Virus record (IMG/VR): IMGVR_UViG_3300045988_179664
Location: 22,072 to 86,071 of that record
Length of the DNA: 64,000 nucleotides
Strand: one strand, 5' to 3'
Source of the DNA: a virus
Both the position numbers and the translations under genes were made by a program. The notes below the pieces were generated by a model. It saw only the letters and a program-made list of their open reading frames with translations. It was not told the DNA's origin and searched no databases. Shown in pieces: positions 3,338-44,289 of this stretch (position 1 is the first letter of the stretch; each line of letters opens with the position of its first letter).

Positions 3338-3365
3338 AGTATATCGATTTTGCAGCAATTTGCAA
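3338..3365 (-). promoter_or_regulatory. Class-2 promoter A. It has -35 TTGCAA, a 16-nt spacer ATTGCTGCAAAATCGA and -10 TATACT.
   Basis: The minus-strand reading is gctgcgcTTGCAAattgctgcaaaatcgaTATACT. It is one of six near-identical elements. Confidence 0.55.
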
Positions 3366-3421
3366 GCGCAGCTATTTAGTGGCGTTTCAACTTTTCCGGG
3401 GGTTTTACTTTTTCGCTTTAC

Positions 3422-4219
3422 TTACAGCAAACTCATCTCTGCACGATACGCATCGGCATCGTAGCCCCAGATATTACAAGCAAAATCGATTGCTGCGTTA
3501 CCTTTGCTGGGATAACCGTCGTCAACAAAATCTCCTTTGCAAAGCGCATACCAGCCACAATTACTTCCGATATCCTCATCCGCATATTTTACACGAATAT
3601 TGGCGTGTGGGAATTTACGGCTCAGTTCGACAATGGCGCATGCAGGTGTATTCCAAGGGGTTTTAAAATTGATGGCAATTTCCGTATCATTTATTCTACG
3701 GATATTCACATCAAAAACATCCCACTTTACGCCCCAGTTTGCGACACGCCAATAATACCATGAAGCATATCCATATTTTACGGCATTTTCCAAAGCACGC
3801 TCCGCTACAGTATCGAACTCTTCGACATTATAGGGGATACGTTTCAGGTTGATGAGTTTGCTATCTTTCACGTGTTCCAGTTTGGAGCGAGCTTCCGCAG
3901 CTTCCTTGCAAACACCAACCATATCTGATGCAGTAAGTTTTTCCTTCCTGTGCAGGAGAAAAGTTTCTCTGCAAATAGCCTTTCTTACGTTTTCCGGATA
4001 CTTCTCCGGGTCAATTCCGTATTTATTTACGGCCGCCCATGCGAGCATCCTGTCACATGGCGATACGATTTGCAGTGATTCCGGCATAGGAACAACAGAC
4101 TGAAGCGAAAAATCTTTTTCGCCATCATCGTCTTTTCCCTTGACACGATTCAGAAAATCCTCCAACTCTGCCTGAGAATTGAAAGAAACAGACATGATAT
4201 TCATGATATTGTTTGCCAT
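3422..4219 (-). CDS. Conserved hypothetical protein of 265 aa with a WYYWRVANWGVKWD motif. It may belong to a family associated with plasmids or conjugative-element leading regions, but the family was not confidently recognised.
   Basis: ORF with AAAGGAG RBS 7 nt upstream. The tryptophan-rich motif and a Cys/His cluster (CGWYALC) suggest a conserved fold. Confidence 0.55.
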   Translation of the reverse strand: MANNIMNIMSVSFNSQAELEDFLNRVKGKDDDGEKDFSLQSVVPMPESLQIVSPCDRMLAWAAVNKYGIDPEKYPENVRKAICRETFLLHRKEKLTASDMVGVCKEAAEARSKLEHVKDSKLINLKRIPYNVEEFDTVAERALENAVKYGYASWYYWRVANWGVKWDVFDVNIRRINDTEIAINFKTPWNTPACAIVELSRKFPHANIRVKYADEDIGSNCGWYALCKGDFVDDGYPSKGNAAIDFACNIWGYDADAYRAEMSLL

Positions 4220-4236
4220 TTATTTTCTCCTTTGTC

Positions 4237-4416
4237 TTACGCGGGTACGCGTACGCAAGAATAGTGGCAAGCTCCACAATTCAGGAACTTTGCCCGCTTC
4301 ATCGCCTCATCCAAGCTGAACCGCGTCGCTTCGTTAATGTTGGCAGTATCACTCTTACACTCTACGTAAAAACGCACATCTCCAAAAAACGGGTCTTTAC
4401 GGCTTAGCGCATACAT
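4237..4416 (-). CDS. Small hypothetical protein of about 59 aa (MYALSRKDPFFGDVRFYVECK...).
   Basis: GGAGG lies 8 nt upstream of the ATG at 4416. A truncated paralogous copy lies at 4964-4999. Confidence 0.4.
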   Translation of the reverse strand: MYALSRKDPFFGDVRFYVECKSDTANINEATRFSLDEAMKRAKFLNCGACHYSCVRVPA

Positions 4417-4440
4417 ATTTTCCAAAATAAGTCCTCCTCA

Positions 4441-4520
4441 AATATATTTCTCTCAGAACTTCTCGAATTCCTCGCTCGGCATCTGTGCTTTCGCTTCATC
4501 CAGCAGTCTTTTGTAGGAAT
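4441..4520 (-). pseudogene. Remnant that matches only the 3-prime end of the 246-aa gene at 5012-5752. It encodes ...DSYKRLLDEAKAQMPSEEFEKF then a stop.
   Basis: About 85 percent DNA identity to 5012-5090. No start codon and no upstream coding partner. It lies inside the 4318-4513 / 4936-5109 direct repeat. Confidence 0.4.
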
Positions 4521-4552
4521 CGCTGGAAACATTTCCTTTCTATTTATTTTCG

Positions 4553-4894
4553 TCAAATGATAACGGCTTCCAATGCTACAGCACCAGACCCGATTTCATC
4601 AGCAACTTTTGATGCTGTTGCAAAATCGTTGTGAGCATACGGTCCTTGCGAATCCATATAAGTGACTCGGTAGGCATAATCTGGCTCAAATGATGGGCTT
4701 ACAATAATGTAAATACCAGTGTTTAACTGATATGTGATGGCATCAGCTTTTTCGATTTGAGCGATGATTTCCTTTCGACGCTTAGCTTCCGACTGCAAGT
4801 ATTCAGATGCTGCCTCTTTAATAGGGTCACAAAGGAAAATATCGTCTGGATTACCCGTAATCGGGGGTAGGTCACCCGGATAATAGGATATCAT
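4553..4894 (-). CDS. Hypothetical protein of 113 aa.
   Basis: ORF with AAGGAG RBS 8 nt upstream of the ATG at 4894. Confidence 0.45.
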   Translation of the reverse strand: MISYYPGDLPPITGNPDDIFLCDPIKEAASEYLQSEAKRRKEIIAQIEKADAITYQLNTGIYIIVSPSFEPDYAYRVTYMDSQGPYAHNDFATASKVADEIGSGAVALEAVII

Positions 4895-4963
4895 GCTTTC
4901 ATCTCCTTCTTTTTGTCTTCAGCGATGACTTTTTGGAACACGTTAATGTTGGTGGTATCGCTC

Positions 4964-4999
4964 TTACGCTTTACGGCTCAACACATACATATTTTCCAT
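4964..4999 (-). pseudogene. Truncated copy of the small 4237-4416 gene. It reads MENMYVLSRKA then a stop.
   Basis: GGAGGA RBS followed by a start codon as in copy 1. A deletion of about 30 nt relative to 4350-4385 creates a premature stop. Confidence 0.35.
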
Positions 5000-5011
5000 A
5001 ATAAGTCCTCC

Positions 5012-5752
5012 TCAAATGTACCTCTCCCAGAACTTTTCGAATTCCTCGCTCGGCATCTGTGCTTCTGTTTCATCCAACAGTCTTTCGTAAGAATCACTGG
5101 AAACATCGGTGCCAATAAAATCGGCAACGGCATCATGACCGCGCTGCATCAAAGCGTCTTTCAGAATCGCCCAACGGCATTCGTGAATGGCATCATCCAG
5201 CGTTTTGTTGCCATCAGGCTGCCAATACTCGCCTGTCTGCTGAATTCTATAAAACTCATCCAGCGCATCATCAACATTGTTTTCGAGAAGAATATCGTCA
5301 ATAAAATTGACAGGATAATCCTTGCCGTTGATTTTCACTTCTGCATAACTGAAACAGTCGTCGTCACACGGCATTGCTGCGCATGTGACATCGAAAATTT
5401 CGTGCGTTTCCTTGTTTACCTTGCAAGGCAACTGGAATGTTGCTCCGGACTCGAAGTAAGAAAAGACGACCGCTTCCTCAACATCGTTGTCGGGGCACTT
5501 TGCAGACTGGATAAATTCCGGCATGGACAGCACATCAATACTCTCCCTTCGGTCACCCATGGCAGGATAAACCTTCATGATTGTATAACCATCATGCTGC
5601 AGCTTTCGGATAGCACGGCACAGGTCGAGATGCATTTCATGAAGACTGATGCCACTGCCTCGTCCGTCTTTTTTGGTATAGATTTCGACAACTACATCTT
5701 CAGAGGTGGTCTGAACAACATAATAAGTCTTATCATTACAAATCTTAAACAT
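5012..5752 (-). CDS. Hypothetical protein of about 246 aa (MFKICNDKTYYVVQ...).
   Basis: ORF with GGGAG RBS before the ATG at 5752. Its last 25 codons are duplicated at 4441-4520. Confidence 0.5.
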   Translation of the reverse strand: MFKICNDKTYYVVQTTSEDVVVEIYTKKDGRGSGISLHEMHLDLCRAIRKLQHDGYTIMKVYPAMGDRRESIDVLSMPEFIQSAKCPDNDVEEAVVFSYFESGATFQLPCKVNKETHEIFDVTCAAMPCDDDCFSYAEVKINGKDYPVNFIDDILLENNVDDALDEFYRIQQTGEYWQPDGNKTLDDAIHECRWAILKDALMQRGHDAVADFIGTDVSSDSYERLLDETEAQMPSEEFEKFWERYI

Positions 5753-5773
5753 AGCACTTATCTCCCTTCTCAA

Positions 5774-5971
5774 TCAAACAAAAGCCAGAAAATCGTTGGC
5801 CGGAATCTGTCGCTGGGCATCGTAAGCGGTGCCGTAGACATCATCACCCCAACTGATTTGCACATCCTTCGTCCACAGAGCAAGCTCAGACATTTTTGCT
5901 GCCACGGCTTTTGCGGAGCTGCAGATATACTTCTTGACGGCGTTGTTTTCTTTTACGTTAATTGTAAACAT
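5774..5971 (-). CDS. Small hypothetical protein of 65 aa.
   Basis: AAGGAGG RBS 8 nt upstream of the ATG at 5971. It is the first gene after promoter D and the terminator hairpin. Confidence 0.35.
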   Translation of the reverse strand: MFTINVKENNAVKKYICSSAKAVAAKMSELALWTKDVQISWGDDVYGTAYDAQRQIPANDFLAFV

Positions 5972-5993
5972 TTCAATTTCCTCCTTAACACAA

Positions 5994-6026
5994 CAAAAAA
6001 AACAGCCATCTCGATTGAGATGGCTG
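5994..6026 (-). terminator. Strong rho-independent terminator (CAGCCATCTC-AATC-GAGATGGCTG followed by T8).
   Basis: A perfect 10-bp GC-rich stem and T8 on the minus strand. It lies between the 73-aa gene and promoter D upstream, and the RBS of the 65-aa gene downstream. Confidence 0.6.
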
Positions 6027-6090
6027 CACGAACAGATTTTGAACTAAAACAAGTCAAGGAATTGATACTTTGATTTATCTTAGTTCCTTA

Positions 6091-6118
6091 ATTATATCTA
6101 CTTTGCAGCAATTGACAA
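6091..6118 (-). promoter_or_regulatory. Class-2 promoter D. It has -35 TTGTCA, spacer ATTGCTGCAAAGTAGA and -10 TATAAT.
   Basis: Member of the six-copy motif family. Confidence 0.5.
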
Positions 6119-6148
6119 GATAGCCACAACAGGAATGCAACATCGTAT

Positions 6149-6370
6149 TCACGGTACTTTTTCAACGACATCTTCACCGTAAACCACGAACAGACCAGAG
6201 CCGTTATCCCAGCGAACCATGATACTGCCGGTATCGTCTATACCTGAAACTGTGCCGAGTGTTCCAATAGGTGGAGCCTGAATATCATCCATTTTCAGCA
6301 GTTTCACGCGTGTTCCGGCTGGATATTCGGCACGGAGCGCAGCGACGATTTCTCGATTTGGGAAAGTCAT
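6149..6370 (-). CDS. Small hypothetical protein of 73 aa.
   Basis: ORF within the operon. Resembles small conserved proteins of Firmicute mobile elements, but no confident family assignment. Confidence 0.4.
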   Translation of the reverse strand: MTFPNREIVAALRAEYPAGTRVKLLKMDDIQAPPIGTLGTVSGIDDTGSIMVRWDNGSGLFVVYGEDVVEKVP

Positions 6371-6386
6371 AAATGTACCTCGCTTC

Positions 6387-6935
6387 TTAATATGTCACGG
6401 TGTCAAAGAACTCCTGACATTCCTCATCGTTCAACACAACGCCAAAGTACGCAACACGCTCGACGGTGGTTTCCCACACCTTAACGGTACGCGTCATAGG
6501 CTGAACGACCCACGAATGCTGTCGCCAAAGGCCATCTTCACTTAAAGCGTACCCGGTTGCAATCTGACATCTGCCACGATTTGCATCCCACAGATAAGCA
6601 GCGTTCTGATGGCAACGACAATCTTCGCCCTTCTTCATATACTTGGAACCATAGAAGAACTGTCCTCGTTCCAGAACTTTTTCCGCATCCTCATCACGGG
6701 TATTGAGCAAAACCTCATCACCGCCGAAAGTTAAAATTCTATCACGCAGAGCACGCAAAGTCTTTTTCATTTCGTTTGTGAGCCAAGGCGCGGTGGCGTC
6801 CTCGTTGTACAGCTGCATTGCCTCTACTCGTTTTTTCCATTCCTTATCCATTGGATTCCAGCGGACAGGGTTCGCAACCATATCAGGAGAGGTCATGGGC
6901 GTTTTGGCATTCCAACTAAATTTCTTATTTGCCAT
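6387..6935 (-). CDS. Hypothetical protein of about 182 aa (MANKKFSWNAK...).
   Basis: AAAGGAG RBS 7 nt before the ATG at 6935. Confidence 0.5.
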   Translation of the reverse strand: MANKKFSWNAKTPMTSPDMVANPVRWNPMDKEWKKRVEAMQLYNEDATAPWLTNEMKKTLRALRDRILTFGGDEVLLNTRDEDAEKVLERGQFFYGSKYMKKGEDCRCHQNAAYLWDANRGRCQIATGYALSEDGLWRQHSWVVQPMTRTVKVWETTVERVAYFGVVLNDEECQEFFDTVTY

Positions 6936-6994
6936 TATAATACTCCTTTTCAACAAAACCGCTTACCTTTTTCAGGTAAGCGGTTATATTTTGA

Positions 6995-7646
6995 TTATGC
7001 GAGCATGGGATATATTTCTTTCTTTACCGCCCTCATAAGAGCGGCAGCATGTGCGGCGTTTTGTGCATTGCCAACACCTGCGCGAGATATTTTTGGATTC
7101 ACACGCTCAATGAAATTTTTCTTATACGGGGCAGAAATGCTCCTTGCAGCATCGATAATTTGTTTCATGTTTTCAGCGTCGATTTTTTGCTGAACGCATA
7201 ATTTTTGTAACCGTGTGCAAAAAGCGTCTTTGTTGTCCCGTACAGAAGTAGAATGATTTTTTGTTTCTTTATGTGGGATGACTGCCTCACAGGCTATCCG
7301 TTTAACGCTTAACCCTTTACTGCACATGGTCTGAATAAGCCCGTCATATCCCTTGTCTGCCGACACGATGATATAATTGCTTTTCTTTCCTGTTGTGCAA
7401 AGACTACCAAGTTTAGCAACAACGTGGAAATCCATGCTGTTTTTCCCTGCATTAGAGACGCAAAACTCTACTTGGTTGACTGGGTACTTTGCCAGAAAAA
7501 CCTGCAATTCTTTAAGTGACATGTATGTGGCTTCCGGACCGATGAAGATAATCAGCTTGTCCTTTTTGGTTTTAAAATGCACTACATTTAGCCATTTCTT
7601 TTGGACATTCTCGGTATCTATTAGCCAAACGGTTCGAGTGCAGCTC
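6995..7646 (-). CDS. NYN/LabA-like (PIN-related) domain protein. It is a putative nuclease.
   Basis: The WLIDTENV ... IIVSADKGYDGLIQ motifs resemble NYN-domain acidic motifs. The start is probably a GTG near 7646. The ORF-track start at 7705 overlaps the upstream gene by 50 nt. Confidence 0.5.
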
Positions 7647-7653
7647 ACACATT

Positions 7654-7950
7654 TCACCCCCACACTTCGGTGACTTTTCTGGGGATTCCGTGCTTGTCGA
7701 TACACTGCCGGTAAATTGTAAACTTACTGTTCGGGTGCGCCTTCATATAGTCAGCGCGTGCCGCGTCCGTGTTCGCAATCAGCAAATTTTTATCGGCAAT
7801 AAGAACGCTTTCCCATCCGGAATCGAGAAGCGTACTGGCAACATCTTTGAAAGATACGTCTGCAGGCGTATCGCACTTACAAACCCCTCGTGCGATAGGA
7901 TGCGCAGTGGCAATGATTTTTGCTGCCGTCATCACAGTCTCGTAACTCAT
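7654..7950 (-). CDS. Hypothetical protein of 98 aa.
   Basis: ORF in the operon. Confidence 0.4.
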   Translation of the reverse strand: MSYETVMTAAKIIATAHPIARGVCKCDTPADVSFKDVASTLLDSGWESVLIADKNLLIANTDAARADYMKAHPNSKFTIYRQCIDKHGIPRKVTEVWG

Positions 7951-7962
7951 AGTGTCCTCCTA

Positions 7963-8220
7963 TCATGCCACCTCGGAATACTTTTCGACATCGCTGTTGA
8001 TAGAACGCGCAGGAACACCCTTGGTCTTCTCACTGTAGTAGCCACGCTTTTTCAGCGTGTTCTTAACAATAGAAATGCTCTTGTCGCTGCGCATGGTACG
8101 CTTTCTCTTTTCGATGCGTGCAGAACGAATGCGCTTTTCGTACTTCTGCATACGCACAACATCCATGATGATAGGAGCAGTAGTCTCCGCGATATACTCA
8201 TTAAAAGTTTTCATATTCAC
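7963..8220 (-). CDS. Hypothetical protein of about 85 aa. The start is either the ATG at 8214 or the GTG at 8220.
   Basis: GGAGGA RBS upstream. It is the first gene after promoter B. Confidence 0.4.
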   Translation of the reverse strand: MNMKTFNEYIAETTAPIIMDVVRMQKYEKRIRSARIEKRKRTMRSDKSISIVKNTLKKRGYYSEKTKGVPARSINSDVEKYSEVA

Positions 8221-8249
8221 ATATCCTCCGTAATATATTATTTTTCTAA

Positions 8250-8284
8250 ATAAAAAAGGCAGCTATTTTTTCAAAAATAGCTAC
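8250..8284 (-). terminator. Terminator-like leader hairpin (GGTAGCTATTTTT / AAAAATAGCTGCC followed by T6).
   Basis: A 13-bp stem with one wobble pair and a T-run on the minus strand. It lies between promoter B and gene 7963-8220. Confidence 0.4.
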
Positions 8285-8377
8285 CTTTAGTACATTGTGA
8301 TTGGCGATAATTCAATCACGCACGCCCATAAAACTCTGGTGCGATGCATTGTGTGATTTTATTTATCGGATAACTAT

Positions 8378-8405
8378 ATATTATTAACTTTGCAGCAATT
8401 TGCAA
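8378..8405 (-). promoter_or_regulatory. Class-2 promoter B. It has -35 TTGCAA, spacer ATTGCTGCAAAGTTAA and -10 TAATAT.
   Basis: Identical -35 and spacer core to promoter A. Confidence 0.55.
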
Positions 8406-8420
8406 GCGCAGCATACAATA

Positions 8421-8452
8421 AAAAGCGCCTCCCGTATTACGGGGAAGCGCCT
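8421..8452 (-). terminator. Rho-independent terminator of the 9808-8462 operon.
   Basis: Imperfect GC-rich hairpin GGCGCTTCCCCG...CGGGAGGCGC followed by TTTTT on the minus strand, immediately after the stop at 8462. Confidence 0.5.
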
Positions 8453-8461
8453 TAGTGTTAT

Positions 8462-9061
8462 TTATTCTTTGTTATCCGAAGGAATTTTCGGAGACTTCTT
8501 CTTCTCAACGAAAGCATCAATCGTTCGGCCGAAACGATTAAGAAGCATTGCGCCAAGATAAAGAATGATGCCGCTAATCATGATACCAACATCAAGCGTC
8601 TCAAATCCTGCAAAACTCTTGCAATAAATAGAACTGACTGCGAGAGCGCCAAGCGTTGGCAGCGAAGCAATCGTTACCGTAAGTGCCGCATACACAACAC
8701 TATTCAGAACAGTACCAATACTTGCAATAATGCCGCGCTTTTTAAATGTGCGCTGCTTATCGTAGGACATCTGATAAGCCCCGATAAGACTTGGCTCACG
8801 AATAATGTCGCGCAGATGCAGCAGACACCACGCCAAAACAGCACACCCGATGCCGCAGCCGACCTTATAGGCACTCATGCGAGAACCCCACAGGTCATTT
8901 GCGTTGGCGGGAACGACGAACGCCAGAATGTTGAACAGGACGGCAAACAAGACGAACATTGCCATGTGGGGATTCTTGGCAGTGTTGCGAGCCTCGTTCT
9001 TTGCCTTACTGGCGACTTCCTCGGTCTGATTGTGAATTTTTACATTGAGAATCTTTTCCAT
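8462..9061 (-). CDS. Polytopic membrane protein of 199 aa with about four transmembrane segments and unknown function.
   Basis: Hydrophobic segments FVLFAVLFNILAFVV, VGCGIGCAVLAWCLL, ASIGTVLNSVVYAAL and ISGIILYLGAMLL. Confidence 0.5.
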   Translation of the reverse strand: MEKILNVKIHNQTEEVASKAKNEARNTAKNPHMAMFVLFAVLFNILAFVVPANANDLWGSRMSAYKVGCGIGCAVLAWCLLHLRDIIREPSLIGAYQMSYDKQRTFKKRGIIASIGTVLNSVVYAALTVTIASLPTLGALAVSSIYCKSFAGFETLDVGIMISGIILYLGAMLLNRFGRTIDAFVEKKKSPKIPSDNKE

Positions 9062-9105
9062 TTTTTACCTTTCCTTTCATGTGGGCGATTTAGTTGTAAA
9101 TCGTT

Positions 9106-9438: not shown

Positions 9439-9478
9439 AATTACTGATGGTTTACGGGTTTATGGACATCGAATCGCA

Positions 9479-9808: not shown

Positions 9809-9845
9809 GTTTTAAATTAGGTTAATGTTCGGACATCTATATAAA

Positions 9846-9883
9846 CAGCAAAAAGCCGCCAATGGGACAATCCACTGGCGGCT
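9846..9883 (-). terminator. Hairpin (AGCCGCCA...TGGCGGCT) plus T-run lying between promoter C and the 9808 start.
   Basis: 8-bp stem followed by TTTTTGCTGTTTAT on the minus strand. Confidence 0.4.
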
Positions 9884-9936
9884 CAGTTGCCGATTGCAAT
9901 AATACAGTTAAATCATTTGATTTATGTTATGTCTCA

Positions 9937-9964
9937 ATTATATTAACTTCGCAGCATAATGCAA
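9937..9964 (-). promoter_or_regulatory. Class-2 promoter C. It has -35 TTGCAT, spacer TATGCTGCGAAGTTAA and -10 TATAAT.
   Basis: Member of the motif family. It abuts the sortase stop codon. Confidence 0.5.
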
Positions 9965-9972
9965 GAGCTTTT

Positions 9973-10944: not shown

Positions 10945-10955
10945 AATACATCACC

Positions 10956-12119: not shown

Positions 12120-12130
12120 GAAAATCTCCT

Positions 12131-12170
12131 TTATAAAAAGACCCCGGCAGACAGGTTGCCTACCGGGGCA
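12131..12170 (-). terminator. Terminator-like hairpin (CCCCGG...CCGGGG followed by a T-run) between the SecE-like gene and the PPIase gene.
   Basis: GC stem followed by TCTTTTTAT on the minus strand. Confidence 0.4.
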
Positions 12171-12175
12171 GTATT

Positions 12176-12678: not shown

Positions 12679-12693
12679 TGTGTTGCCCTCCCG

Positions 12694-34276: not shown

Positions 34277-34304
34277 ATTGTATCTACTTTGCAGCAAATA
34301 GCAA
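34277..34304 (-). promoter_or_regulatory. Class-2 promoter E. It has -35 TTGCTA, spacer TTTGCTGCAAAGTAGA and -10 TACAAT.
   Basis: Member of the motif family. Confidence 0.5.
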
Positions 34305-34351
34305 AGAAAAAAGCCGAGCGGCTTATCACCGCTCGGCATCCCCATCACATA

Positions 34352-35883: not shown

Positions 35884-35912
35884 ATTATACCACCAAAAAC
35901 ATAAATAGTCAA
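35884..35912 (-). promoter_or_regulatory. Class-1 promoter with TTGACT, 17-nt spacer and GGTGG-TATAAT.
   Basis: The minus strand reads TTGACTatttatgtttttgGTGGTATAAT. Confidence 0.55.
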
Positions 35913-35991: not shown

Positions 35992-38900
35992 TTACTGCTT
36001 CTTTTCCTCGGTTTTATCCTCAGTCTTTTCAGCAGCTTTTTCTTCGCTATCGCCCTTCTTCTTCTTAACGATGACAAATGCGCCAACGCCAATCAGAGCA
36101 ACAACAACGATAACAGGAACGATGATGTCTGCGCCAAAACCAACGCCAGTCTTGTAGTTAACTACAACAGGTGCCGGAGTGGGAGCGGGTTCATTCTTGA
36201 CTACAGGAGTCGGAGTCGGTCTGCTTTCTTCCGGAGGATTCTCCAGCTTAACACTTGCTACCCGAACATCACCGTAGTTGCCTGCCTTATCGACTGTACG
36301 GGTCACAATGTAACCAGTCCAATCGGGGCTCAGCTTGAAGGTAACGTAACCGTTGTCCTTATCAATGCTTGTGACATCGACAGTCTCGAACTTGGTTTCG
36401 TCGAAGGTGTAATCGCCCTTAGCACTCTTGGCAATAGCAGAACCATTGACCTTGTAATACTGAATCTTAGCGACACCGGAGTTGTACTCGCCATCCAGAG
36501 CGGAAATAGCAGGAACGGAATCCTTGACCTTTACAACAGGCACGAAGTCGGGGTCTTCGGTATCGTCCTTATCACCGTTTTCGTCGGGAGTAGCAACGAC
36601 ATCGTTACCGTTTTCATCACCGGTCTCGTCGCCGGTTGTGAAGAGAGCGGGCTTACCATGAGCAATACGAAGCGTAGTGGCTTCGGTCTTGTCATCGGTT
36701 GTTTCGGCCTTCTCGGACTCGCTGGGAACTTTCTCCTCGGTACCGGATTCGGTTTCATCCTTCTTGTCGGAATCTTCCTTCTTATCGGTATCGTCGGTAT
36801 CGTCCTTCTTGTCGTCTTCCTTCTCAGGTGCCTTGCCGGTCTCTTCACCAGTAATGAACACATTGATGGTGCTCTCGAACTTGACGAACTTCTCGTTCAG
36901 CAAGTCGGTCTTATTGGTGGAATCAACCTTATCGGCAGCGAAAGCAGAAGCAACGACAGGAGCTTCGGTATCAACAGATGTGGTGATAGTTCCCATCTCG
37001 GTAATGGCACCAGTCTTCAGGTCAATCAGGTAATAGGTAGAAGCAACCTTCTCACTATTAGCGGAAATGACCATCTTCTCGGCCCACTCAGCATCGGTCA
37101 GGGAATCGCTGGTTCCGATTGCGTAGCCCTTAGGAGCGATAACTTCAACCTTAGAGTTGAAGTACAGGCCACTCAGGTCATCAGTCGTCTTCTTGGTAAC
37201 CTCAACAGGCTTACCGGTCTTTTCGTCAGCCACAGTACCAACGATAGTTGCGGGCTCTACATCGGCAAGATGCAGACGCTGAACTTCGAGGTCTCCGGTG
37301 GTAGGCAGGTAATTGTAGTTGTCGTAAGCGCCGCCAACATACTTGAAAGCGTCCTTCGTCAAGCCAACATTACCGAAGATACCATCGATGCTGGAAGCAA
37401 CAATGAGTTCGAAGGAAGGCAGCTTAACGGTTTCAGCAGTCTCGTCGAAAGCGTAACCACTGGTCTTGATTTCGGGAATCTCCGTCTTAGTGCCATACAG
37501 CTTGACGACGGGGTTCGGGTCGAGAGTAACCGTCAGGTCTTTGCGAGCGATAACGAACTGACCATCGGCTTCGTTCTTATCGGCATCGACGACATTGATT
37601 GTTACTGCGTAATTCTGCTCAACAGCAGCATCGTAATCAGAGGTAACGGTGTAGGTGTAAGTACCAGCGTTCTTGACATTCTCAGTCTTGAACTGGCTGT
37701 CGCTCTCCACGCCGTCATCGCCGCTGGCGATGTCAGGAGTCAGAGTCGCCTTTGCATCAGCAGTCAAGGGAGCAGTCTGTGCATTGTCGGTGGTCTTGTC
37801 GTTCTCGAAAGGAGTATAAACAAGTGCCATCTTCAGGCCCAGAGAATCAGGTTTGACAGCTGCACCGTGTGTACCGTCGCCATTGGTGGCAACAGCATTT
37901 ACGGTGAAGTCGGGGTTAGTGGTATCGCCATAGACGATATCCTTGGGCTCGGTGACAGTGACTTCGACCAGACGTTCGCCAATGGTATAAACGCCATTAA
38001 CAATCGTAATCAGGTAATCGTCATTGTCGTAAGAACCGACCATGTCGTATGCACCGTAATTCTTGACAGATTCGGGCACGCTCTCCGCAACCAGAGACGC
38101 AGCACCATCAGCAGACTTCATGGAAATCTTTTCAGCAACCGCGTTCTCAACATCCTTCTGAGTGATGCTGATAATAGCTTTCAGGTCATCGCCATTTACG
38201 ATGGTCTTCTTATCGGCATCGCCAGTATAGGTAAGAGTATTGCTCAGTTCAGCCATTTCATTGCCGTAGACAGAACCAACAGTGCCGATGGTCCAAGTCA
38301 GAGGACGCTGAGTGACCGTGTAAGTGCCGTTCATAGCAGTTACCAGATAATCCTGATAAGAAGCCTGACCGACACGGTGAGCCAGACCGGAGAAGGAAGG
38401 AACGATGTCGTAGCCTCCGACATGGCTTGCAGAAGTGACGAGGCACAGGTTCGTGCCTTCCAGAATATCACCATTGACCAGAGCTGCCTTGGCAGTGTCA
38501 CCAGTGTATTCCAGAACGTTCACGGTGCCGTAATCAGACCAATCTTCAACAGCAACATCGTCGCCATAGATAGAAGTCTGGGGTTTAGCGGTGACAGTGA
38601 TGGGACGCTTGTCGATAACAAAATCAACGGGAGCGTAAACAAAGGTGTAGTTGTTTGCTGCGGCATTCTCAACATTTGCAGGAACGACCTTGCCGGTACC
38701 AGCGTGAGAAGCTACCGTTGCGGGAGCTCCCTCAGCATCGGTGAAGTTGAAGGTCAGGTTTGCAATGCTCAGGACACCAGCATCATCAGGAGTAGTGTTG
38801 CCCTTGACGGGTTTCACAACGAATCCATCGAAAATCAGGTCATCGCCGGAGAGAACAGGGTTCTCATCGCCGTAAATCTTGCTCTGGGGAGCCAGAGTAA

Positions 38901-41900
38901 CATTCAGCGTAGCAGGAGTGATTTCAAAGGTGTTGTTTACGCGGGTGATGTTGAAGTTGGCATCATCGCCCTCGATAATCATCGGGTGCTTGCCGACATC
39001 TTCACCAGCATCGGTGCCAGCGTCAGGACGAACAACCTTCAGGTTTGCAAGGTCGCCTGCATCCTCGCTCACATAGTAAGCGCCGTCACCAGTTGCAGTC
39101 CAAGTCAGTTCGGGGTCAGCCTCGCCGTAGACCTTCTTCTGGCCTTCGTCAACAACCACGATTACATCGCGCTTATCGACATGCAGAGAACCATCAACAA
39201 AGACGATGGGGTCATAGTTCTTTGCGCCCTTGTTTTCCAGACCGCTCATGGTGATGACATAATCGCCAGCAGCAGGACGAGCAGGAATCTCGGACAGAGA
39301 ACCGTCAGCATTCTTGATGTTGTAGACAACCGAGCCAGTGAATGCGGAAGCAACGGTGTCATTGTTCTTCAAGCCAGTAACGGTGTAGCTGAACGTGGGA
39401 ACGGTGCCGCCATAAATCATGGAGTAACCGCCAGCCACAGTAAAGGTGACCTTAACGGGCTTGATGGTCAGAGTAGCAACTTCCATAGCTTCGGGCTCGG
39501 TGGTGGAAGAACCAACATCGACGGAAGTGCCGGAGCCAGTCACGATGGTGATGGCGTAGTTGCCGTACTTGTTGTACAGAGTGGAGCTGATGGGATATTC
39601 ACCGACATCCTCACCGGCTTTGCGAGTAACAGAGCCGCTCAGAGCACCAGTAGTCAGTTCCAGCGTATTCTTCTTCAGACCATCGTTGGAAATGTTGCCG
39701 GAAATCTCGCTGTAAGAGAATGCGGGGTCTGCATCGCCGTAATCCTTCTCGTAGTTGGAGAAAGTCAGGGTGATGGGACGAGGAGTGATGGTGATGGTAG
39801 AATCAATCACCGTCAGGTCGTAGTTGGCAGGCTGTGCGTAGATAGCTTTCAGAGCATAAGTGCCAACGCTTGCGGAAGCAGAAGTTGCACCGGAAGTCAG
39901 GGTAATGCCCTTAAGAATCTTTTCGGCTTCTGCTGCCTGAACATCAGTAGTAGTCAGCAGACCAGTGCCGCCCTTGATGTAATCCTTCACGTTCATAGAA
40001 GTGAGGGTCTCACCATAGGTCTTTTCGGTTTCAAGCAGGTTGATAACGGCAGTACGCTTATTGATGGTGAAACGAACATCATTGGTGAAGCTGATACGAT
40101 AGTTCTTTGCCATCGTCTGCTCATAGATGTTACCGCTGTAAATCGGATAAGTGCCAGCGTTCTCGCCTGCTTCACGGCTCAGACGAGCCTGTGCGAAGTC
40201 AGCCTTGGGTTCTGCGAAGCTGGTGGTATTGTAGTCGAAGATGACATAGGTATCGTTGACTGCAAAGCTGGGGTCAGTCTCGCCGTAAGTCTTGGACAGG
40301 CCATAGCGAGGAGTGATGGTCAGGGGCATCTGATGAACAATCAGCATGTTCTTACCATCGGGCTCAGACAGCTTAACGCTGTTTGCGGGCTGGTTATCCA
40401 GACGGAAGGTCAGGTTGTAAGAACCTGCATCGTACAGACCAGAAGCGTTCGCAGTAGCCTCAACGGCGATACGAACAACACCCAGAGAAACATCCTTGCC
40501 GTCCATCTTGATATTGACGGTTTCGCCATCGTGGTAAATCTGAGTGCCATCAGAGGTATTCACGTTGACGGAAACTTCCTTGGCGATGGTGTCGGGCTTC
40601 TTCTCACCGTAAGTAGTCTGCAGGGCGTTGAAGGTGACAGAGACATCAGCCTCGGTGACTTGGAACGTAGCCTGCGGAGCAATCGTTACGATGTAATTGG
40701 GGTTCTCATCATAGGAGATGGTAGCCTCATAGTTGCCAACAACCGTGGTGGGGTCTTCCCACTTGGTCAGGTCGATGTGGATGTTCAGCGGGCTGCCCTG
40801 CGGGTCAACCACATTGATAGCCTGAGAACCGGTCTCGTCATACAGCGCATAGCTGGGGGTGTTCTTACCGGCAACGCCGTACTTGCGGACGCTGTTGGTA
40901 GTACCCTTGATGGTGACAGGCAGTGCATTGATAGTCAGCGTACCGCTTGTACCATCGCTGTAAGTGCCGGTGTAAACGATGTTGTAGTTGGGGTTGGTGT
41001 AACCGGAAACAACAATAGGATAGGTACCGACACCAGTCAGCTTGCCAACGGTATTGTCAACGCCATACTTGATGGTGACAGTGCCACCCAGAGAAGCGAC
41101 GGTATCGTGGATGCCGATTTCATCGTTGCTTGCGAAGTTCTTGTATTCCAGTGCGCCGGTAATGTCGGCATCGCTGGGATTCTCGGAACCATACAGACGT
41201 TCACGGTTCGGAACGGTGATAGTCAGAGTACGCTTGGTGATAGTGTACTTATCGGGAGCATTGAAGGTGATATCGTAGTTCTTGGCGATTTCAGCAGTCT
41301 GGAACTGTGCATCGCTGTAAGCGTAAGAACCAACAGTCTCGCCGACCTCACGGGTCACAACGCAGCCAGCAAAGTCGGAGCCAACACGGCCACCCTTGCC
41401 ATTGACGGGGTCAAGAGTAAAGGCAACGCCGCCCTTGGCATCACTGTCGCCGTAAACCTTCGTCTGACCACCCATCACATTGATGGCGATAGGACGCTTG
41501 GTGACGGTCAGCTTGCTGTTGACAAAACGAACCAGATAGTTGTCGTAACGGTCGTAGTTCTTGCCATCGGCATTGGGGTCCCAGTCAGAAGACCAACGCT
41601 CCTGAGAAGCACCCTGCACAGATGCGCTGACGGTGTATTCGCCAACATTGGCAGTTGTAGGAGTGCCGCTGTTGCCAGCCGCATCTACCATAGTAAAGCC
41701 AAGCTTGTCCTCGGTCAAACCGATGCTTGCCTGTGTATCGTTCAGTTTGAAACCTTCGATGGATTTAATCTTGCCAGAACGAGCAGCACCATACATTGCG
41801 GACAGGTCATCGAGAGTGACAGTCAGCATTGCAGGATGGATGATGTACTTGCTGTTGATGACTTTGACGTCATAGTAAGCAGTGCATGCAGGGGGAACTT

Positions 41901-43944
41901 CGACAGTCATCGGATATTCGCCAACATTCTTATTGTCGATATCCTGACGCTGTGTTGTCAGAACCATGCTGACCAGCTTGTTCACACCGTCATCAGCGGT
42001 GATGTCAGAACCAGCGACAATACGCTTATCGGAGGCCACTGCCTGAGCAGCACCGTTATAAGCAACAGCGTCGAAGGTAATGGTGGAAGACTTGCCCTTT
42101 TCAGCCTCACCATAGATGGCATCAATCTGGTCGTTGGTGATGGTTACGTTACGCTTGGTAATTTCAAACGTTGCGGTAGCAAGGTTAATGTTATAACCAT
42201 TGATAGGCGCATTCGTCTGGATATTGCCGATTGTAACAGTGTAGCCACCTGGAGCAGAGGTGATGCTGGGCAGAACAACGGTGGGTTCACCGCTCAGACC
42301 AAGCATCTCTTTCAGAGCAACTGCGTTGGACTTGTGCTCGTTGTTGGTCTTATACTCGAAATTCGTCTTATCGGTATCAGACCAGCCGGTAATCACGAAG
42401 TCAACCTGAGGATTCTGCTGACCATACTGACGAGTGGCTTTGCTGCCGGTCGTCTGTACGCCATCATTGCCCTTGAAGACAAATACAGGAGTCAGGGTCA
42501 GAGTCTTTTCAGAAACGACAACATACACATCGCCGGTATTGGGCTGAATGTCGATGTTGTAGTTCGTGTTGCTCTTCGCGGAGGAACCTAAGATGATTTT
42601 GTAAGAACCGGTAGTGTCCTTATCAAAGTTCTCTGTGGTCAGAACATCCGCAGGAAGCAGGTCGCCGTCAACCAGACCACCATTGGTATCCATAACGGTG
42701 TAGTTAATCTGGCTGATGGTATTGCCCTTCGTAACATAAGTGGTATGAGGGACAATGTAAATCTGACGCTTGTTGATAGTCACACCCGTGTCATTGCGGA
42801 TATTCTTAGAAGAATCCAAGTTGGAACCGTCAATGATGGTGTAATTCAGACCATTCACAGTAACGCTTGTGGCACCTGTATCAACATAAGTCGGATAAGT
42901 ACCGGCATTGCAATGAATGTCTGTGGGATTCTGGCCGTCGCCGTCAGCCGGAGCATACATGATGAAGCTCAGACCGTCGATGGCTGCCTGAATATCCTTT
43001 TCGACTTCCTGAGAAGTACGGGAATCAGCAGTGCTGTATTCGATGGTCAGACCCTTAGACTTGAAGGAGTCACCGTAGGTGTAGGTAACAGTCTGAGGCA
43101 GAATGCGAATGACATTCTCCTGACCGTTAATCTTGGTATACTGAATACCAGTGCCTGCGGCAATCTGCTTACCAGTCTCAGCAGCGGTGATTGCCTGATA
43201 GTCCCCGATGACAGTCGTAGAACCGCCGCCATCAAACGCGCTGGCACCGCTGTTGTCTACGGGGTTTTCCTGACGGTCGCAAACCTGCAGATACAGGTCA
43301 GACATATCAAGGTATGCACTCATGACGGGCTCGGCGACCTGCTCATCCTCGCTCAGAGAATAATACATGTCTTCAATGGGTTCCCAGTCATAAACTGCAT
43401 CCAGTTCCTCAGTGCGACGCGTGACCATCGCATCAAGAACCGCGTTTTCCTTGTCAGCCTGCCATGCCTTGCTTGCAAGACCGAAGTTGTTTGCAGCAGT
43501 CAGAATTTCATCTTTACGGCTTACAAGGGCGTTAGCCGCATCGATAAATGCCTGTGCTGCTTCACTGATGCTGCCAGTGGTAGAAGCTTCGCTGGAAGTG
43601 CTGGTGCTTGCACCAGTATCAGAGGCAGCACTGTTTGCGTAGGCAGTGGTCGTTTCAGACCCCGCCTGACTTGTAGCCTCAGAAGAAACATCGCTCGTCA
43701 CAGAAGTGTCGCTGGACGCGGAACTTGCTGTGTCGGTAACATCGCTTTTCGGCGCGGGAGTAGTAGCGGAAGAGTCGGAGTTTGTTGTCGTAGTGCTGAG
43801 TGCATCAGTTTCCTTCGGAGCTTCTTCACTCTGCGTGATTCCACTCGCGCTCTCCACTGCATAAGCAGTGACAGGAGCAAACTGAGACAGGCACATTGCT
43901 ACGGCGACAATCGCACTCAAAAACCGCTTACGAGGTTTCTGCAT
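35992..43944 (-). CDS. Giant cell-surface adhesin of about 2650 aa. It has a signal peptide, a Ser/Thr-rich region, many MBG (YGx-type) repeats, and a C-terminal NYKTG sorting signal followed by a hydrophobic segment and a KKKK tail.
   Basis: Signal MQKPRKRFLSAIVAVAMCLSQFAPVTAYA with AGGAGGG RBS at 43944. Repeated K-x-YG-x-x-DP motifs. C-terminus NYKTGVGFGADIIVPVIVVVALIGVGAFVIVKKKKGD. Confidence 0.85.
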   Translation of the reverse strand: MQKPRKRFLSAIVAVAMCLSQFAPVTAYAVESASGITQSEEAPKETDALSTTTTNSDSSATTPAPKSDVTDTASSASSDTSVTSDVSSEATSQAGSETTTAYANSAASDTGASTSTSSEASTTGSISEAAQAFIDAANALVSRKDEILTAANNFGLASKAWQADKENAVLDAMVTRRTEELDAVYDWEPIEDMYYSLSEDEQVAEPVMSAYLDMSDLYLQVCDRQENPVDNSGASAFDGGGSTTVIGDYQAITAAETGKQIAAGTGIQYTKINGQENVIRILPQTVTYTYGDSFKSKGLTIEYSTADSRTSQEVEKDIQAAIDGLSFIMYAPADGDGQNPTDIHCNAGTYPTYVDTGATSVTVNGLNYTIIDGSNLDSSKNIRNDTGVTINKRQIYIVPHTTYVTKGNTISQINYTVMDTNGGLVDGDLLPADVLTTENFDKDTTGSYKIILGSSAKSNTNYNIDIQPNTGDVYVVVSEKTLTLTPVFVFKGNDGVQTTGSKATRQYGQQNPQVDFVITGWSDTDKTNFEYKTNNEHKSNAVALKEMLGLSGEPTVVLPSITSAPGGYTVTIGNIQTNAPINGYNINLATATFEITKRNVTITNDQIDAIYGEAEKGKSSTITFDAVAYNGAAQAVASDKRIVAGSDITADDGVNKLVSMVLTTQRQDIDNKNVGEYPMTVEVPPACTAYYDVKVINSKYIIHPAMLTVTLDDLSAMYGAARSGKIKSIEGFKLNDTQASIGLTEDKLGFTMVDAAGNSGTPTTANVGEYTVSASVQGASQERWSSDWDPNADGKNYDRYDNYLVRFVNSKLTVTKRPIAINVMGGQTKVYGDSDAKGGVAFTLDPVNGKGGRVGSDFAGCVVTREVGETVGSYAYSDAQFQTAEIAKNYDITFNAPDKYTITKRTLTITVPNRERLYGSENPSDADITGALEYKNFASNDEIGIHDTVASLGGTVTIKYGVDNTVGKLTGVGTYPIVVSGYTNPNYNIVYTGTYSDGTSGTLTINALPVTIKGTTNSVRKYGVAGKNTPSYALYDETGSQAINVVDPQGSPLNIHIDLTKWEDPTTVVGNYEATISYDENPNYIVTIAPQATFQVTEADVSVTFNALQTTYGEKKPDTIAKEVSVNVNTSDGTQIYHDGETVNIKMDGKDVSLGVVRIAVEATANASGLYDAGSYNLTFRLDNQPANSVKLSEPDGKNMLIVHQMPLTITPRYGLSKTYGETDPSFAVNDTYVIFDYNTTSFAEPKADFAQARLSREAGENAGTYPIYSGNIYEQTMAKNYRISFTNDVRFTINKRTAVINLLETEKTYGETLTSMNVKDYIKGGTGLLTTTDVQAAEAEKILKGITLTSGATSASASVGTYALKAIYAQPANYDLTVIDSTITITPRPITLTFSNYEKDYGDADPAFSYSEISGNISNDGLKKNTLELTTGALSGSVTRKAGEDVGEYPISSTLYNKYGNYAITIVTGSGTSVDVGSSTTEPEAMEVATLTIKPVKVTFTVAGGYSMIYGGTVPTFSYTVTGLKNNDTVASAFTGSVVYNIKNADGSLSEIPARPAAGDYVITMSGLENKGAKNYDPIVFVDGSLHVDKRDVIVVVDEGQKKVYGEADPELTWTATGDGAYYVSEDAGDLANLKVVRPDAGTDAGEDVGKHPMIIEGDDANFNITRVNNTFEITPATLNVTLAPQSKIYGDENPVLSGDDLIFDGFVVKPVKGNTTPDDAGVLSIANLTFNFTDAEGAPATVASHAGTGKVVPANVENAAANNYTFVYAPVDFVIDKRPITVTAKPQTSIYGDDVAVEDWSDYGTVNVLEYTGDTAKAALVNGDILEGTNLCLVTSASHVGGYDIVPSFSGLAHRVGQASYQDYLVTAMNGTYTVTQRPLTWTIGTVGSVYGNEMAELSNTLTYTGDADKKTIVNGDDLKAIISITQKDVENAVAEKISMKSADGAASLVAESVPESVKNYGAYDMVGSYDNDDYLITIVNGVYTIGERLVEVTVTEPKDIVYGDTTNPDFTVNAVATNGDGTHGAAVKPDSLGLKMALVYTPFENDKTTDNAQTAPLTADAKATLTPDIASGDDGVESDSQFKTENVKNAGTYTYTVTSDYDAAVEQNYAVTINVVDADKNEADGQFVIARKDLTVTLDPNPVVKLYGTKTEIPEIKTSGYAFDETAETVKLPSFELIVASSIDGIFGNVGLTKDAFKYVGGAYDNYNYLPTTGDLEVQRLHLADVEPATIVGTVADEKTGKPVEVTKKTTDDLSGLYFNSKVEVIAPKGYAIGTSDSLTDAEWAEKMVISANSEKVASTYYLIDLKTGAITEMGTITTSVDTEAPVVASAFAADKVDSTNKTDLLNEKFVKFESTINVFITGEETGKAPEKEDDKKDDTDDTDKKEDSDKKDETESGTEEKVPSESEKAETTDDKTEATTLRIAHGKPALFTTGDETGDENGNDVVATPDENGDKDDTEDPDFVPVVKVKDSVPAISALDGEYNSGVAKIQYYKVNGSAIAKSAKGDYTFDETKFETVDVTSIDKDNGYVTFKLSPDWTGYIVTRTVDKAGNYGDVRVASVKLENPPEESRPTPTPVVKNEPAPTPAPVVVNYKTGVGFGADIIVPVIVVVALIGVGAFVIVKKKKGDSEEKAAEKTEDKTEEKKQ

Positions 43945-44261
43945 GTTAGTTGCCCTCCTAATAATGTGAGTGTTCTGTGGTTTTACCACAGCCGGATTTA
44001 TATACACCCTTACCTACTCCCTAGTGTGCAGCCTCGATTGTAGATAAGAAAGTATATCAAAACACAAGCAATCAAATTGCATATTTACAATATGCCACAA
44101 AAAGACAGAAAAGTCAATCAAAAAATTTGGCACAAAAATGCCACCCATGAACGCATTCTCATATTTCGTATGGACATGGATGGTTGAAACATTAACGCAA
44201 AACCTGCTTGACTATAGCTATTATTTGTTCTGAGAAATTTGATGCTGTATTTATATCTATT

Positions 44262-44289
44262 ATATTACTTACTTTGCAGCAACGGTCAA
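44262..44289 (-). promoter_or_regulatory. Class-2 promoter F. It has -35 TTGACC, spacer GTTGCTGCAAAGTAAG and -10 TAATAT. It drives the 2650-aa adhesin gene with a leader of about 300 nt.
   Basis: Member of the motif family. Confidence 0.5.

Follow-up and report, generated by a model that had tools for sequence, protein, structure and literature searches.

A repeated promoter, leader and predicted terminator cassette of a huge human-gut phage-like element, and its possible gating by antitermination

The 64,000-nucleotide stretch analysed here (positions 22,072 to 86,071 of the IMG/VR virus record IMGVR_UViG_3300045988_179664; hereafter the window) carries six similar promoter sites, all on the minus strand, which lie in front of a radical SAM operon, operons of small genes, a gene for a secreted protein, and a gene for a giant adhesin. 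These are the genes that the original prediction, made from the letters of the window, had placed behind the sites when it proposed them as a promoter class of their own (class 2). When the window was searched with TTGCAANTTGCTGCAAAG at up to three mismatches, we found six matches, whereas shuffled sequences gave 0.22 on average and never more than 2. A weight matrix built from 55 non-redundant class-2 copies (positions −36 to +2) recovered the same six sites with scores of 26–45 bits, while the rest of the window scored at most 8 bits and shuffled sequences reached a maximum of 3.7 bits. Since no sequence in the window scored between 8 and 26 bits, class 2 is discrete and the list of six is complete. 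Sigma-70–like promoters were also called independently at two of the sites, at 6118..6091 (TTGTCA-16-TATAAT) and at 3365..3338 (TTGCAA-16-TATACT).

The six sites are less uniform than first described. The −35 element had been read as TTGCAA, which is present at two sites only, and the others have TTGTCA, TTGCAT, TTGCTA, and TTGACC. The palindrome TTGC-T-GCAA in the spacer is intact at five of the six sites, and site 9947 reads ATGCTGCGAA. Strong intrinsic terminators are predicted 45–110 nt behind four of the six (Table 1). At promoter 1, the ribosome-binding site (RBS) and the start codon (3229) of a gene for 151 amino acids (aa) come after the leader terminator. In the leader of promoter 2, AAGAUAAAUCA pairs with its complement in a 5' hairpin, and there are also a UUCAAAAUC box and a terminator; the RBS and start codon (5971) of a 65-aa gene are ~30 nt past the terminator stem. 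Promoter 3 has the terminator of the upstream operon on its 5' side. Promoter 5, whose −35 element is abutted by an upstream terminator, has no leader terminator and leads straight to the RBS and ATG of a 362-aa secreted or lipoprotein-like gene. Promoter 6 (site 44272, TTGACC-N16-TAATAT) has normal spacing with TAATAT as its −10 element; ~110 nt past it there is a weak hairpin with a T-run and no more, followed by a promoter resembling the second class of the window (class 1; TTGACT...TGTGGCATATTGT), which sits between site 44272 and the 2671-aa MBG-domain gene to which these promoters lead.

To describe the class as a whole, instances of the core were collected from the window and from IMG/VR loci, which gave 136 unique sequences; 106 of them carried both TTG at −34 to −32 and, at −12 to −7, TAnnnT; of these 106, 55 were non-redundant. 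As TTG and TAnnnT served as filters, they are not independent of the resulting logo, which for the 55 copies reads tCTTGC nn TTTGCTGCAAAGT naA TAtAcT naaanY A(+1)U..AWAAAUMAAA. The short form of the promoter is tCTTGC-N3-TTGCTGCAAAGT-N3-TAtAcT, with A at +1 in 49 of the 55 copies. The core TTTGCTGCAAAGT (also given as TTGCTGCAA) spans 12–13 bp from −28 to −16 and is nearly invariant, while positions −30/−29, −15 to −13, and −6 to −1 around it are almost random, which bears out the earlier view that the spacer is under strong constraint. Because the flanks of the core and the interior of the leader have diverged to near-randomness with the core fixed, selection rather than recent copying accounts for its conservation. 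The tetramer TTGC occurs twice in the promoter, at −34 and at −27. With TTG at −34 to −32, a 16-nt spacer and a −10 element that is mostly TATACT, TACAAT, or TATAAT, class 2 has the geometry expected of the housekeeping sigma factor, and we predict that it is of the sigma-A (sigma-70) type.

Class 2 is not simply the general consensus of its genome, as the original prediction had recognized, since a separate conserved class coexists with it. Copies of this second class (TTGACn...TGTGGTATAAT) are indeed present on the minus strand of the window, the one at 35884 being one base off. Its 'super-consensus' is aTTGACtA-N13-TTTGTGGTATAATATAAaTA (short form TTGACn-N13-TTTGTGGTATAATATA), with an extended −10 element. 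About 25 non-redundant class-1 copies were found in related loci, on both strands, and class 1 runs straight into an RBS or a transfer RNA (tRNA) array. About 75 nt past one class-1 promoter of the window (31127) there is a terminator-like hairpin with T-runs, then a second promoter, an arrangement that may be a small RNA (sRNA) gene.

The conserved class-2 unit does not end at the promoter. The original prediction had taken the promoter as the whole unit, and we found that it is the first third of a conserved cassette of ~110–140 bases, in which a promoter with a fixed 12-base core continues through a short conserved leader into a strong terminator. This continuation shifts the likely point of control from initiation alone to termination and read-through. 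The early transcript is conserved from +1 to +16 (A-U...AWAAAUMAAA). A variable stretch separates this region from the box UUCAAAAUC(G/U)A, which is followed by a hairpin of the form (AUA)CCGC(C/U)AUCUC-loop-GAG(A/G)UGGCGG(UAU) and then by UUUUUGUU. In subfamily B of the leaders, which includes window site 6101, the 5' box pairs with an inserted complement and forms an extra 5' hairpin that is independent of the terminator. The motif at +6 to +16 is thus kept both single-stranded (subfamily A) and paired (subfamily B), and its retention regardless of pairing suggests that it acts as DNA or early in transcription, at a set distance from the core. The alternative, that this A-rich box is part of the terminator device and not of the promoter, was dropped, as its presence and that of a terminator showed no significant association (38/9 vs 5/3, p = 0.35).

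Core, leader, and terminator are closely coupled. Under strict criteria, a leader terminator ending at +60 to +130 was found behind 87 of the 106 unique class-2 promoters, with its hairpin beginning 30–110 nt past +1. In the non-redundant sets, such a terminator was present behind 85% of class-2 promoters (40/47) compared to 16% of class-1 promoters (4/25; Fisher p = 1e-8). A start codon with a Shine-Dalgarno sequence follows at a median of 43 nt past the terminator stem, and at 23–40 nt in half of the cases. A second promoter would not fit into so short a distance. The polymerase must therefore read through to reach the downstream genes, and the expression of many genes of the element probably hinges on passage of a stop signal that is part of the cassette.

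Because the first collection had been selected on the core, the coupling was also analysed from the other side with a leader-only covariance model (R1), which covers +1 to the U-tail and excludes the promoter. This model gave 120 matches at E ≤ 0.1, and the best 100 (E ≤ ~0.003), taken with their upstream flanks, yielded 67 unique leaders. In a search of 60 nt, TTGCTGCAAAGT with at most one mismatch was found at a fixed 27–28 nt upstream in 65 of these 67 leaders, and it was exact in 51. Scanning IMG/VR with a pattern of the leader alone led to the same contigs as the promoter pattern and to no further clade, and the core was present at all nine leader-pattern matches in newly fetched loci (9/9).

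The leader hairpin is supported by covariation. Across 54 distinct sequences, 94% of cells were paired, compared to 26–63% in slid controls, and compensatory changes occurred at 10 of 11 pairs, by which we regard the hairpin as a real RNA structure with the features of an intrinsic terminator. At the top of the stem (YAUCUC/GAGRUG), the sequence itself is conserved, and one A-U pair there is invariant. Whole leaders were predicted to fold at −21 to −40 kcal/mol (z below −5.7), and a subfamily-A leader deprived of the 3' arm of its terminator folded at −1.7 kcal/mol (z −0.17); subfamily-A leaders are thus unstructured except for the terminator, and the interior of the RNA is its least conserved part. 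The folded leaders have no competing antiterminator structure that would tie up the 5' arm of the terminator, such as a riboswitch or a classical attenuator would have. Given strong terminators and no competing fold, read-through would need a trans-acting factor. At the Rfam 15 gathering score, no family was found in the whole window and only tRNAs were found in 12 related loci; a permissive E-value search of positions 3200–10100 gave chance-level matches only. Searching the literature for the core sequence, as well as for leaders or antitermination in jumbo phages, turned up nothing relevant to this motif. The cassette appears to be a phage promoter class with a built-in terminator gate, for which we found no Rfam family and no describing paper.

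Predicted transcripts of 60–130 nt with conserved boxes and a terminator could also be read as a family of stand-alone sRNAs, with an A-rich 5' part, a hairpin, and a U tail in an Hfq-like shape, acting as decoys, sponges, or antisense RNAs while the genes are expressed otherwise. One pair of cassettes has no gene between its copies, which would suit such a family. The proximity of the start codons, with no space for a promoter of their own, argues against it, as do the low conservation of the RNA interior and the position of the cassettes, which are always co-oriented with and directly 5' of unrelated genes; we consider a stand-alone sRNA family extremely unlikely. The pair in question (related locus L026, 6560–6910, minus strand) consists of two class-2 cassettes in tandem, 227 nt apart. 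As the terminator of the first has decayed, the pair is probably a remnant of duplication, and we rejected it as a set of stand-alone sRNA genes.

To define the distribution of the cassette, we scanned genomes for the exact pattern TTGCNNNTTGCTGCAAAGTNNATA. Among 185,579 bacterial and archaeal species genomes there were six matches, approximately the number expected by chance. Of the five that could be inspected, four were not promoter-like; none had the leader, and one (L004), seen without its flanks and at the end of a contig of a 'Clostridium sp.' metagenome-assembled genome, looks genuine. The same scan of IMG/VR gave 55 loci, mostly in a few contigs (346, 241, 172, 143, and 92 kb), the richest of which had 23 exact matches. 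At ~98% identity, the window matches parts of two of these contigs, those of 241 kb and 346 kb. About one third of the 346-kb contig was sampled, and in these 128 kb at least 37 class-2 sites were seen directly; a capture-recapture estimate from 23 exact-promoter and 14 leader-pattern sites, 5 of them shared, gives ~64 class-2 cassettes for the contig. The original prediction of a six-member regulon of a bacterial species is replaced by a different picture: there are dozens of copies per genome, placed before unrelated genes, and the cassette family is clade-specific, belonging to a huge (at least 346 kb) human-gut phage-like element and essentially absent from the species genomes. The exact SecY-like protein of the window was found on many human-gut metagenome contigs, and a megablast search with positions 1–12000 of the window gave no match among PLSDB plasmids or INPHARED phages. 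The sampled parts of the 346-kb contig encode an NAD-ligase, a topoisomerase, UvrD/RecD2/Dda-like helicases, a CCA-adding enzyme, a dCMP deaminase, and Bro-N and ANT proteins. In related contigs there are tRNA arrays (L012, 8487–10832, 8 tRNAs; L026, 9867–10340, 5 tRNAs), and the window itself has no tRNA. This set of replication, tRNA, CCA, Bro, and ANT genes fits a 'huge phage'.

A repeated module of this kind recalls the promoter-early stem-loop (PeSL) cassettes of T4-type phages, in which strong sigma-70 promoters and stem-loop terminators flank small ORFans (PMC2839356, PMC4122927). As with PeSLs, a ~100-bp composite of host-type promoter and terminator is repeated in a large phage genome before small genes of unassigned function. 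The class-2 cassette could accordingly be mobile or recombinogenic, with its conservation arising from duplication, gene conversion, and gene shuffling rather than from a dedicated regulator, and with the core kept simply because it belongs to an efficient 'super-promoter'. Many of the genes first behind the cassettes are small, near-identical cassettes recur together with their downstream sequence at several loci as paralogous duplications, and the tandem with a decayed terminator in L026 would also fit. Yet in a crude test between related contigs with partial loci, homology breakpoints fell within cassettes 6 times (7.6 ± 2.7 expected) and within 100 nt of them 23 times (17.4 ± 3.9 expected), so that the cassettes, unlike PeSLs, are not enriched for crossover breakpoints. 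Moreover, the core is fixed while its flanks and the leader interior are near-random. The hairpin geometry also differs: the PeSL stem-loop lies between the −35 and −10 elements or over the −10 element and stops upstream transcription (PMC2839356), whereas the terminator here, 40–130 nt past the start, would stop the cassette's own transcript, and the spacer palindrome TTGC-T-GCAA cannot form a stable hairpin. PeSLs have neither an invariant spacer core nor conserved leader boxes, both of which are present here. A mobile cassette therefore seems highly unlikely to us as the explanation.

We tentatively propose, as a reading with somewhat less than an even chance of being right, that the six sites are copies of a clade-specific phage promoter class gated by factor-dependent antitermination. 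Host RNA polymerase of the sigma-A type would start at a class-2 promoter and be halted by the leader terminator of that promoter, yielding no more than a short RNA. A phage-encoded factor would then make the polymerase resistant to the terminator; to recognize the cassette, it would use the DNA of the promoter core (in the manner of lambda Q), the leader RNA (in the manner of N or LoaP), or the two together. The ~60 short operons that these gates precede would come on in concert, forming a single temporal class, and class-1 promoters, with a consensus extended −10 element and no gate, would be expressed without the factor. A stop between the promoter and genes that have no other promoter, its repetition ~60 times, and the lack of an alternative fold together argue for dependence on a trans-acting factor.

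The logic resembles that of the lambda PR'-QBE-tR' region, where a housekeeping-sigma promoter has factor-binding DNA (the Q-binding element, QBE) between its −35 and −10 elements and a terminator shortly downstream, and only a short RNA is made unless Q is loaded; the genes past the lambda gate are turned on as a temporal class. The class-2 cassette shares with this type of gate (Q-lambda, Q21, and Q82 families) a housekeeping-sigma type of promoter, a conserved early transcript at a fixed distance, and a strong terminator shortly downstream. Its near-invariant core at −28 to −16 lies, like the lambda QBE, between the −35 and −10 elements, and is a putative protein-binding site. A Q-like version of the proposal is the only single-factor model that would explain the invariant core, the conserved early box, and the class-specific terminator together. 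Differences are that lambda has one gate per genome and this element ~60, that some class-2 promoters are without a terminator, that no Q homologue was found in the sampled sequence, and that the host here is a Firmicute; we know of no Q-type system described in Firmicutes. A more far-reaching version, genome-wide promoter-coupled antitermination in a huge Firmicute phage with a new antiterminator family and a new family of cis-element and leader RNA, is in our view unlikely. It would comprise ~60 identical gates, each made of a 12-bp spacer loading site, an early-transcribed box, and a terminator with a conserved stem top, and the putative factor would act like lambda Q but without the sigma-dependent pause.

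Several points weigh against gating by antitermination. Promoter activity, the start site, termination, and both the existence and the identity of the factor are predictions from sequence. The terminators could be constitutive attenuators. A terminator is lacking behind about 15% of class-2 promoters, among them 34287 and, in effect, 44272 of the window; the core evidently also serves promoters that lack a gate of their own. Within +1 to +25, 20 of the 55 copies contain TAnnnT, compared to 18.7 ± 3.1 in shuffled sequences, so the −10-like pause element that is a hallmark of lambda Q is not enriched, and the AWAAAUMAAA box lacks a T at the −7-equivalent position. In the part of the genome that was sampled, where most open reading frames (ORFs) have no family match, no gene for an antiterminator, a sigma factor, or a NusG-like protein was found. 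The phage identity of the element is itself suggested by its IMG/VR classification, the tRNA arrays, the CCA-adding enzyme, the Bro and ANT proteins, and the replication genes, and a capsid or terminase gene was not seen in the sampled third of the 346-kb contig. For this reason, and because the window encodes giant surface proteins, a Sec operon, and a ParM-like actin, we use the name 'huge phage-like element'.

The main rival is an operator function, in which the spacer core would bind a phage repressor or activator of initiation at all class-2 promoters and the terminators would be constitutive attenuators or insulators. The protein might be an immunity repressor of an extrachromosomal prophage (in the style of P1 C1 or the L5 stoperators), a temporal shut-off protein, or an activator of middle genes. 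A near-invariant 12-bp site in dozens of copies, with one orientation and a fixed position in the promoter, is what such a system would have, as are the palindrome in the core, the TTGC repeat, and the occurrence of the core at promoters without a leader terminator. A ParM/Alp7A-like segregation protein would suit a plasmid-like carrier state, and a small helix-turn-helix (HTH) protein of 93 aa is encoded in a class-1 operon. P1 and L5 likewise have dozens of conserved repressor sites per genome; those of P1 C1 and L5 gp71 are 13–17 bp long and orientation-dependent, many overlap promoters, and the carrier can be an extrachromosomal prophage with partition genes. Class 2 resembles them in having dozens of oriented conserved sites of at least 12 bp across the genome. 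However, the P1 and L5 sites lack symmetry and differ from copy to copy, the majority of L5 sites lie outside promoters, and known operator sets in general vary far more than this core. Nor are the P1 and L5 sites coupled to a conserved leader and terminator, as the class-2 core is, and an operator would leave unexplained both this coupling (85% against 16% in class 1) and the conservation of +1 to +16 and of the UUCAAAAUC box. The exact palindrome of 9 bp, with half-sites 5 bp apart, seems short for a classical HTH dimer, and no cognate repressor emerged from the candidates. We regard an operator as somewhat unlikely.

A third possibility is that class 2 is a promoter for a phage sigma factor, a sigma-appropriation complex, or a phage RNA polymerase, with the block from −28 to −7 as its specificity element. 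The conservation is contiguous over ~22 bp, the class is discrete without intermediates, and TTTGCTGCA matches the T4 MotA box TTTGCTT(T/C)A at 8 of 9 positions, a resemblance that is a lead only. T4 middle promoters, which form a temporal promoter class, have a MotA box upstream of a normal −10 element and depend on sigma appropriation by AsiA. That box has its centre at −30 and takes the place of the −35 element, whereas the core here is centred near −22, 5–6 bp nearer the −10 element, and the TTG of the −35 element is kept. TTG at −34 to −32, TAnnnT at −12 to −7, and a purine 7 nt further on are housekeeping-sigma geometry. No MotA or AsiA homologue was seen here, and both proteins are, to our knowledge, confined to T4-like phages with Gram-negative hosts. 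The best 25 of the 66 Pfam families of the 346-kb contig included none for an RNA polymerase or a sigma factor, and a crude tblastn search with sigma-70 region 2/4 and NusG-KOW peptides, to which we attach low weight, found nothing in 0.67 Mb of sampled sequence. A phage-specific polymerase or sigma factor thus appears quite improbable, and, like the mobile cassette and the stand-alone sRNA, less likely than the operator.

Gating by antitermination, as well as an operator, calls for a regulator. The original prediction had suggested XRE or sigma-like proteins at 21–26 kb, of which none was detected by Pfam or PHROGs. No antiterminator or Q family was found among the Pfam and PHROGs matches of the window ORFs, nor among the best 25 of 66 families for 82 ORFs of the 346-kb contig. 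The sole HTH seen is in the 93-aa protein, which has weak Mor/sigma-r4–like profile matches and a Cys-rich tail. Its model is a confident three-helix HTH, whose structural matches are generic (LuxR/sigma-4/resolvase type) and non-significant. A 220-aa protein encoded on the plus strand behind a class-1–like promoter has clade-restricted homologues without domains and no family match, and its single-sequence AlphaFold model is unusable (predicted local distance difference test, pLDDT, 48). By eye, an HTH-like stretch is visible in this protein. The divergent promoter region between its gene and a minus-strand neighbour has a layout reminiscent of a genetic switch.

The window contains several other features of interest (Table 1). 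Two giant ORFs encode adhesin-like surface proteins with MBG, DUF11, DUF7507, and CARDB-type repeats, an unusual cargo for a phage that raises the question of a phage versus a megaplasmid or phage-plasmid. The ParM/Alp7A-like actin suggests plasmid-like segregation or a phage cytoskeleton. A class-1–driven operon for two zinc-ribbon proteins, a SecY homologue, a SecE-like protein, and an FKBP/trigger-factor–like protein looks like an accessory Sec translocon with a chaperone set, and the same operon is present on many human-gut metagenome contigs. A TnpB gene is inserted on the opposite strand between operons, where related contigs differ, and a local tandem duplication with near-identical small-ORF starts differs from the 241-kb contig. 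A further conserved element of 5' untranslated regions, GTGCGAATG...CGCTTCGCACC-RA-TAATAT..GAAAGG with the closing helix GGTGCGAA/TTCGCACC, lies directly before the RBS of a paralogous gene family in related loci (L032, minus, downstream of a cassette at ~4650; L026, plus, ~9520; L056, plus, ~9770). It stands behind class-1 and class-2 promoters alike and is not in Rfam.

Table 1 Positions of promoters, leaders, terminators, and other features in the window
Feature	Position	Strand	Sequence	Scores and remarks
TTGCAANTTGCTGCAAAG matches	3348-3365, 6101-6118, 8388-8405, 9947-9964, 34287-34304, 44272-44289	minus		
Class-2 promoter 1	3338..3367	minus	gCTTGCAA-A-TTGCTGCAAAAT-CGA-TATACT	matrix 43.3 bits
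Leader of promoter 1	3257..3331	minus		A-rich 5' part and UUCAAAAUC box; model R1 78.3 bits, E 2.8e-9
Intrinsic terminator of leader 1 (predicted)	3293-3264	minus		13 bp stem, U6, −21 kcal/mol
Class-2 promoter 2	6091..6120	minus	TCTTGTCA-A-TTGCTGCAAAGT-AGA-TATAAT	matrix 45.5 bits
Leader of promoter 2	5993..6083	minus		subfamily B; R1 60.1 bits, E 2.3e-6; −29.1 kcal/mol, z −5.9
Terminator of leader 2 (predicted)	6027-6002	minus		
Class-2 promoter 3	8378..8407	minus	gCTTGCAA-A-TTGCTGCAAAGT-TAA-TAATAT	matrix 42.5 bits
Terminator of operon upstream of promoter 3 (predicted)	8453-8422			
Leader of promoter 3	8250..8371	minus		structured insert; R1 37 bits, E 0.012; −39.7 kcal/mol
Terminator of leader 3 (predicted)	8288-8255	minus		15 bp stem
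Class-2 promoter 4	9937..9966	minus	TCTTGCAT-T-ATGCTGCGAAGT-TAA-TATAAT	variant core; matrix 41.9 bits
Leader of promoter 4	9845..9930	minus	5' AUAACAUAAAUCAAAU	divergent; −36.9 kcal/mol; without R1 match
Terminator of leader 4 (predicted)	9884-9853	minus		13 bp stem, 8 GC pairs
Class-2 promoter 5	34277..34306	minus	CTTTGCTA-T-TTGCTGCAAAGT-AGA-TACAAT	matrix 41.0 bits
Class-2 promoter 6	44262..44291	minus	ATTGACC-G-TTGCTGCAAAGT-AAG-TAATAT	matrix 26.1 bits
Class-1 promoters	15619-15629, 18531-18541, 31127-31137, 33044-33054, 34929-34939, 35884-35894	minus		
Class-1 promoter	22938-22948	plus		
Possible sRNA gene	~30990-31140	minus		
93-aa HTH protein	28671-28952			class-1 operon
220-aa protein	23048-23710	plus		
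Minus-strand neighbour of 220-aa gene	22438-22893	minus		
Divergent promoter region	22894-23017			
ParM/Alp7A-like actin	24209-25468	minus		
Giant ORF	35992-44007	minus		2671 aa
Giant ORF	44373-63941	minus		6522 aa
Sec operon	9973-15571	minus		
SecY homologue	12694-14034	minus		
FKBP/trigger-factor–like protein	10956-12434	minus		
TnpB gene	15865-16965	plus		OrfB_IS605 / Cas12f-like TNB
Local tandem duplication	~4205-5026	minus	GAGGAGGACTTATT(T/A)TGGAAAATATGTATG...	

Processive antitermination offers a further comparison for the proposed gate. In such systems, conserved leader RNA elements near the promoter let the polymerase bypass intrinsic terminators (PMC12691694, PMC13401043). Unlike the LoaP, conAn, N, and put systems, the cassette has ~60 copies, its subfamily-A leaders are unstructured bar the terminator, and no NusG paralogue was found in the sampled sequence. 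The LoaP and pLS20 conAn1/conAn2 systems of Firmicutes, as well as lambda N/nut and HK022 put, serve one or a few long operons and have structured recognition hairpins 5' of the terminators. The closest described analogue of the class-2 cassette is the PeSL cassette in architecture and the lambda PR'-QBE-tR' gate in logic.

Next to nothing is known about how the huge gut phages, which are uncultivated, time their gene expression, and the cassette provides a concrete and testable handle on it. A single module of ~60 copies appears to separate two classes of transcription, with a strong stop before most class-2 genes, and it could allow the many uncharacterised genes of the element to be sorted into temporal classes from sequence alone. 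As a compact promoter–terminator gate with an invariant recognition site, the cassette may also suit synthetic biology. If the terminators are merely constitutive, class 2 would be an unusually stereotyped phage promoter class, comparable to the PeSLs of T4. If read-through depends on a factor, that factor would be a new antitermination or promoter-recognition system in phages of Firmicutes.

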